Position numbers and translations under genes: made by a program. Below, piece after piece: positions 26,838 through 27,138 of a stretch of DNA of 64,000 bases; within the stretch, counting starts at the first letter, position 1; each line of letters opens with the position of its first letter. Location: the NCBI RefSeq assembly GCF_988242995.1, contig NZ_OZ547043.1; one strand, given 5' to 3'. The notes below the pieces were generated by a model. It was given only the letters and a program-made list of their open reading frames with translations, had not been told where the DNA came from and ran no database searches.

Positions 26838-27138
26838 AAATCATCCTTAATTAACTGGTATGGAAGGTCACTCGTTTTCAAACCCGATTATGTGATCAGG
26901 TTGTTATTATTTAGATTAATGTTTAAATTTTTTAATTTCTTGATGTGAAGTTGATGAAACTTTGAAAATTTAATATTCTTAATTGTTCCCTTCTTTATAA
27001 GAAGAGCAAGGTGCCATCATTAGAGTGACAGAGTAGGATGTTTCAGAGCATGCTTCAGATTGTTTTTTATTTCTCTGCAGTGTATTAATAATCATCACAG
27101 ACAATTTCATTCTGAAATTACTTCTTTCTTTGAGTATT

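Follow-up and report, generated by a model that had tools for sequence, protein, structure and literature searches.

The 301-bp intergenic region (gap) at 26838-27138 of the stretch of DNA analysed here, which is 64,000 nucleotides long and is hereafter called the window, is an unremarkable 5' region, that of an already catalogued fimbrial operon which is silent in the laboratory and lies in AT-rich foreign DNA. Its AT-richness is a property of the whole island and is not particular to the gap. The first fimbrial gene has its ribosome-binding site in the gap, and we consider it rather probable that the operon has weak sigma-70 promoters, one or several, which are kept silent by H-NS-family proteins covering the whole stretch of gap and espX1.

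Gene content and identity of the locus

Two open reading frames of the minus strand abut the borders of the gap exactly, as given below.

26304-26837, minus strand: fimbrial major subunit gene, 177 aa, first gene of the operon and orthologue of Z0024 (ORF; RefSeq 'fimbrial protein'; Pfam Fimbrial, PF00419)
26838-27138, minus strand: intergenic gap, comprising the espX1 3' untranslated/termination zone and the 5' regulatory region of the Yeh-like fimbrial operon (ORF borders; RefSeq annotation; 29.6% GC)
27139-28560, minus strand: espX1, 473 aa, co-oriented upstream gene, 32.1% GC (ORF; RefSeq 'type III secretion system effector EspX1')

RefSeq annotation was taken from strain CFSAN061763, which is 100% identical over a 601-bp query centred on the gap. 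The gene order in this strain is nhaA, nhaR, a 319-aa hypothetical protein, usher, chaperone, fimbrial protein and espX1 (the last five on the minus strand), followed by rpsT, yaaY, ribF, ileS and lspA, and O157:H7 has the same layout. The initial annotation had placed the gap between the EspX-like gene and a fimbrial operon, ahead of the latter; this was thereby upheld, the gap following espX1 and the operon being of the chaperone-usher type. All four fimbrial genes are full length and intact in the window. The same 601-bp query found matches in 3,632 of 5,426 complete E. coli genomes; the locus is absent from 33% of them, and its site is flanked by the conserved nhaR and rpsT.

Earlier work has already catalogued this locus (OI-1, 'loc1', Yeh-like fimbriae). 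In reviews it figures as O-island 1 (OI-1) of O157:H7 with ORFs z0020-z0025, and its usher Z0022 was placed in 'Yeh-like', clade gamma-4, by usher phylogeny (Wurpel et al. 2013, Table S2). The operon, Z0024-Z0020 in EDL933, encodes 'Yeh-like' gamma-4 chaperone-usher fimbriae and lies in a horizontally acquired island between nhaR and rpsT. The gene of the 319-aa hypothetical protein (22136-23095) is intact in the window and is annotated as a frameshifted 'fimbrial family protein' in O157:H7; the protein gave no Pfam match. Six ORFs are described for OI-1 and five genes are found here, so that this 319-aa gene is probably divided in O157:H7 into Z0020 and Z0021, the latter being the motility repressor reported as FmrA. 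The names 'ECs0022/ECs0025' in PMC3175480 were considered as locus tags and rejected, both being sRNA names.

Base composition and curvature

The low GC content that had been noted for the gap was confirmed, at 29.6% against 50.4% for the whole window; both strings quoted in the initial annotation are found in the sequence, and the near-absence of G/C runs also held, just three runs of at least 3 bases lying within the gap. Only 1.0% of all 301-bp windows in the 64 kb are as low in GC, and the gap, which is single-copy, has the lowest GC among the ten intergenic gaps of at least 30 bp from dnaJ to ispH. The lowest-GC 301 bp of the whole 64 kb, at 25.6%, are not the gap; they lie at 28460-28760, upstream of espX1. 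The GC content is 32.1% in espX1, 36-41% in the fimbrial genes and 47-56% in the core genes on either side, and it stays at about 32% or lower without a break over 26.8-28.8 kb. The most AT-rich part of the gap is a core of 100 bp.

26888-26987, unstranded: AT-rich core, 19% GC over 100 bp

The gap had also been described as curved DNA. We calculated the helix path with a wedge model in 120-bp segments and took the ratio of end-to-end to contour length; a phased A-tract control bent strongly in this model, which is approximate and takes its dinucleotide parameters after Bolshoy et al. (1991). The ratio was 0.98 for the AT core, 0.94 for 26900-27019 and 0.85 for 27077-27196, against a window median of 0.97 and a window 1st percentile of 0.86. 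By this approximate measure the AT core is essentially straight, and the four A/T tracts of at least 4 bases in the gap are unphased, so that the description as curved DNA is unsupported for the core. The sole moderately curved 120 bp near the gap are those at 27077-27196, which include the espX1 stop. Another strongly AT-rich stretch of the window, 37276-37739 (27.6% GC), holds its most curved 120-bp segment (start 37484, ratio 0.69); judged by position, this is presumably the dapB-carA control region.

Signals within the gap

The candidate signals of the gap and its immediate border are as follows.

26844-26848, minus strand: Shine-Dalgarno AAGGA, 6 nt before the ATG at 26837-26835 (read from the minus-strand sequence)
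26906-26935, minus strand: best proximal sigma-70-like candidate, -35 TTAAAA (26935-26930), 18-nt spacer, -10 AATAAT (26911-26906) (promoter scans)
26944-26959, unstranded: CRP-like site TGTGAAGTTGATGAAA, weak and speculative, 2 mismatches to TGTGA-N6-TCACA
26988-27006, minus strand: 8-bp hairpin CUCUUCUU AUA AAGAAGGG, without a U-tract (folding; eight-allele alignment)
27136-27165, minus strand: distal sigma-70-like candidate, -35 ATGAAA, -10 TAAAAT, overlapping the espX1 stop (promoter scans)

The proximal promoter candidate, with a predicted start near 26899 and a leader of about 62 nt, is not statistically separable from shuffled sequence. The consensus scan of the gap returned two sites against 3.4 expected from shuffles, and the position-weight scan, which is approximate and uses frequencies after published compilations, ranked the distal site first and the proximal second, its best score being 10.8 against 10.2 +/- 1.6 for shuffles; the scores therefore point to nothing beyond composition. 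The distal candidate falls in the moderately curved segment described above. Across the island -10-like hexamers occur at 13-20 per kb, against 1.4-3.2 per kb in ribF and ileS. The CRP-like sequence was set aside on account of its weakness.

No intrinsic terminator of espX1 (a GC-rich hairpin with a U-tract on the minus strand) was predicted in the gap, and the 171 nt past the espX1 stop fold no better than shuffles (z = -0.14). The hairpin at 26988-27006 was tried as a terminator and rejected: it has no U-tract and, because two of its stem pairs are broken in 1-2 of the 8 alleles without any compensating change, it is not a supported terminator. The GC skew of the plus strand over the gap is +0.09 to +0.21, the minus-strand RNA having more C than G, which favours Rho-dependent termination. 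Outside the gap, at 28653-28718, a sub-threshold match to the SAM-V riboswitch was seen (29.9 bits against a gathering score of 41, E 0.043), which is probably a chance or composition artefact in AT-rich DNA.

Expression of the operon and H-NS

AT-rich foreign DNA is the usual substrate of H-NS, and H-NS silencing of this locus is plausible but unproven. That the operon is cryptic, as had been proposed, is borne out by strand-specific RNA-seq of EDL933 in 11 conditions, where Z0020-Z0025 have values of 0-4 against 1600 for rpsT; Z0021 is among the genes without any covering read in EDL933 RNA-seq. Reviews mention that deletion of Z0021 (fmrA) in EDL933 has a phenotype, and therefore some expression would be present in the wild type. 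Among the lacZ fusions of Low et al. (2006), as summarised by Elpers & Hensel (2020), only the F9 and Yeh loci were reported to be expressed, and this locus is unnamed in that summary. Ethanolamine is stated in a citing paper to raise 14 of 16 EHEC fimbrial loci.

The available ChIP tables for EHEC Sakai and ETEC H10407 have no entry for the locus, and the available text of the Pch/Ler/H-NS ChIP study does not mention it. The best match in the gap to the high-affinity H-NS motif TCGATAAATT has 2 mismatches, and the motif is not enriched. One comparison of hns+ and hns- backgrounds was found, in EAEC 042 (Prieto et al. 2018; PMC5861252 Table S1), with one library per strain. The 042 gap is 301 bp long and 96.3% identical, with two differences only in the promoter-proximal 220 bp. 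The sense RPKM that we recalculated from the read counts of that table were as follows.

042 subunit gene: WT 22.5; hha hha2 134; hns 101; hns2 126; hns hns2 32
042 espX1: WT 20.7; hha hha2 137; hns 140; hns2 95; hns hns2 37

Antisense-mapped reads numbered 8.4-8.5 M in the hha hha2, hns and hns2 libraries and 2.4-2.6 M in those of the wild type and hns hns2, a difference of 3.4 times. In the hns and hha mutants the island was up 4.5-6.8-fold, and weakly expressed core genes were up too in the same single libraries: leuD, araD, thiP and tbpA changed 2.4-5.4-fold in hha hha2, hns and hns2, the range in hns being 3.0-5.4-fold, and 0.8-1.4-fold in hns hns2. Because these core genes rise in the same libraries, what remains specific to the island in the single mutants is a rise of only about 1-2-fold, with the lowest value in the promoter-proximal gene. 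The subunit gene rose 4.5-fold in hns and 1.4-fold in hns hns2, each value coming from one library per strain; in hns hns2 the island genes ranged from 1.4-fold (subunit) to 3.4-fold (usher), and leuO was up 10.8-fold. For espX1 in the hns library the sense signal rose 6.7-fold and the antisense signal 7.0-fold. The pattern 'up in single mutants, wild-type in double' may partly be library background. Taken as they are, the 042 data are compatible with silencing by H-NS/Hha backed up by StpA, without establishing it.

Variation of the gap among E. coli genomes

Nucleotide diversity was obtained from an alignment of eight full-length alleles. It is 0.011-0.018 in the promoter-proximal 150 bp of the gap and 0.048-0.058 in the espX1-proximal half, stepping up inside the gap near 26988 and tracking the flanking genes, for which the values at codon positions 1/2/3 are 0.003/0.003/0.022 (subunit) and 0.036/0.034/0.068 (espX1). 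Since the promoter-proximal diversity is close to that of third codon positions of the subunit gene, it leaves no footprint of strong constraint. The unusually high diversity of espX1 and the step near 26988 suggest that selection on espX1 is relaxed or diversifying, or that a recombination boundary lies here. In the AT core 4 of 100 columns are variable among the 8 alleles, and its identity is at least 95% in almost all of 3,624 genomes.

When an exact 20-mer from the AT core was searched in one genome per species, four contigs only were returned, all of them E. coli DNA in mislabelled assemblies, and therefore no cross-species footprinting was possible. These contigs, labelled uncultured Alistipes, Collinsella MAG, Bacillota MAG and Tannerella forsythia ATCC 43037 (L014, L015, L016 and L017), are 94-99% identical to the locus and look like E. 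coli contamination; two of the four carry the deletion described next.

26881-26882, unstranded: right-hand breakpoint of a 2,442-bp deletion (genome comparison)

This one deletion (24440-26881), with an identical junction and a 3-bp overlap, is present in 2,427 of the 5,426 complete E. coli genomes, the intact junction being kept in only about 1,200. It takes the 5' part of the usher gene, the chaperone gene, the major subunit gene and the initial 44 bp of the gap, with the Shine-Dalgarno sequence among them, and leaves the AT core and the 319-aa downstream gene. IS1 also recurs in the island, with insertions and linked deletions (copies at L013 2247-2944, L002 6388-7085 and L018 866-1563). 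In one strain it replaces 25639-27176 of the window, the whole gap included; it splits espX1 in HB101 and the 319-aa gene in strain 042. K-12 presumably has only an IS1 between nhaR and rpsT.

Proposed control of the operon and alternative readings

The arrangement which we favour is that the AT core would contain a weak sigma-70 promoter, or several, driving the operon, the likeliest start being near 26899, and that this would be kept off mainly by filaments of H-NS-family proteins (H-NS/StpA with Hha). These filaments would coat all of the AT-rich DNA that begins with the gap, runs across espX1 and continues into its upstream region, with no special curved element being recognised. Promoter-like sites on the correct strand and the density of -10-like hexamers, the low GC of the whole island, the silence in EDL933 and the rise in 042 count for this arrangement; promoter scores at the level of shuffles, the lack of curvature in the AT core, the 2-mismatch motif, the single 042 libraries with their small island-specific excess, the promoter-proximal diversity and the reported phenotype of the fmrA deletion count against it. 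Residual transcription of espX1 may read through into the operon unless stopped by Rho, because no intrinsic terminator follows espX1.

Carried to its end, such read-through gives the main rival, in which the gap has no promoter of its own, is an untranslated spacer, and the fimbrial genes are transcribed from the espX1 promoter. We hold this to be unlikely, though it is the one to be taken most seriously. The two genes are co-oriented, no intrinsic terminator was predicted and the RNA after espX1 folds like shuffled sequence, the promoter candidates are at chance level, and the RPKM of espX1 and the subunit gene are near-equal and co-vary in the five 042 strains listed above. That co-variation is, however, also seen in unrelated weakly expressed genes and may for this reason be background, while the C-rich minus-strand RNA favours termination by Rho and a 301-bp gap with its own Shine-Dalgarno sequence and an extremely AT-rich core has the usual layout of an operon start. 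A decaying relic, with the operon being lost from the species and no regulatory role maintained, is less probable again. The single deletion shared by so many genomes, the few intact junctions, the recurrent IS1 events across the island and a gap diversity near the synonymous-site level speak for it; against it, the four fimbrial genes are full length here, they are under purifying selection as seen from the codon-position values of the subunit gene, and the AT core is conserved in nearly all of the 3,624 carriers. The deletion breakpoint keeps the AT core and the candidate promoter, joined to an usher remnant and then to the 319-aa fimbrial-family protein gene, and a part of that protein in O157 (Z0021, FmrA) has been reported as a repressor of motility. 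That, once the fimbriae had gone, the gap came to serve a motility regulator as its promoter, so that the prevalence of the deletion would reflect selection and not drift, is a conjecture to which we give little credence.

The initial annotation had further raised the prospect of phase variation. The gap would in that case be a switch, either an invertible element of the fimS type or a pap-type Dam/Lrp methylation switch; such switching is common among fimbrial operons, short inverted repeats are present in the region, and there is one GATC.

26894-26897, unstranded: sole GATC (Dam) site in the gap (sequence)

A pap-type switch, however, requires a pair of GATC sites with about 100 bp between them. 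No perfect inverted repeat is longer than 10 nt; the one of this length has one arm inside espX1 and is matched by 15% of dinucleotide shuffles, that is, at chance level; no homopolymer in the gap exceeds 6 nt. From nhaR to rpsT there is no tyrosine recombinase, PapI-like or PapB-like gene, the only genes being the fmrA-like gene, usher, chaperone, subunit and espX1. When a synthetic query was built in which the gap stands in reverse orientation between its own flanks, none of the 3,633 carrier genomes matched it at a coverage of at least 80%. The switch reading is thus largely refuted, for practical purposes, and retains a minimal probability. Equally slight is the chance that the gap codes for a small protein or a small RNA. 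A small ORF of 43 codons does lie at 26979-27110 on the minus strand, but it is shortened to 9 codons in the O157 allele; no Rfam family matched 26838-27138 even at E up to 1, the folding energy is the same as that of shuffles, and the island is transcriptionally silent.

Relation to known fimbrial systems

Several systems bear comparison with the weakly promoted, H-NS-silenced operon proposed here. The cryptic E. coli chaperone-usher operons (yeh, yad, yra, sfm, ybg and others) are repressed by H-NS, as reported by Korea et al. (2010) and cited in Wurpel (2013). The present operon is of the same class (gamma-4, with yeh as its nearest relative in the usher phylogeny); its 5' region is AT-rich, laboratory cultures show it silent, and its cluster lacks a regulator gene of its own. 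It differs in lying in a strain-variable island beside a type III effector gene, in being deleted in about two thirds of carrier genomes, and in that H-NS control is here a candidate only. The lpf1 (long polar fimbriae) promoter of O157:H7, cited as being under an H-NS silencing that Ler relieves (Torres et al. 2007), likewise belongs to an EHEC O-island fimbrial operon with an AT-rich regulatory region, but differs in that its control is backed by direct binding and genetic evidence. In ehxCABD and other AT-rich foreign DNA many spurious promoters are silenced by H-NS (Singh et al. 2014). Similar to this, the gap and espX1 have 4- to 10-fold more -10-like hexamers than core genes, and the sense and antisense signals of espX1 rise together in the 042 hns library, a signal confounded by library background. 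With fimS of type 1 fimbriae the gap shares some 300 bp of AT-rich DNA immediately upstream of a fimbrial major-subunit gene; unlike fimS it lacks a FimB/FimE-like recombinase, its flanks carry no inverted repeats beyond chance, and none of the 3,633 genomes has it inverted.

An AT-rich, silent 5' region is the look of every cryptic fimbrial operon in foreign DNA, and nothing here will surprise a specialist. The results worth keeping are negative ones or ones of context: the gap is no switch, is not detectably curved and is no more AT-rich than the neighbouring gene, and most E. coli have lost the operon that it would control, one breakpoint falling inside the gap. Mild interest attaches only to this deletion, which is very common and leaves the AT core in place ahead of the fmrA-like gene.
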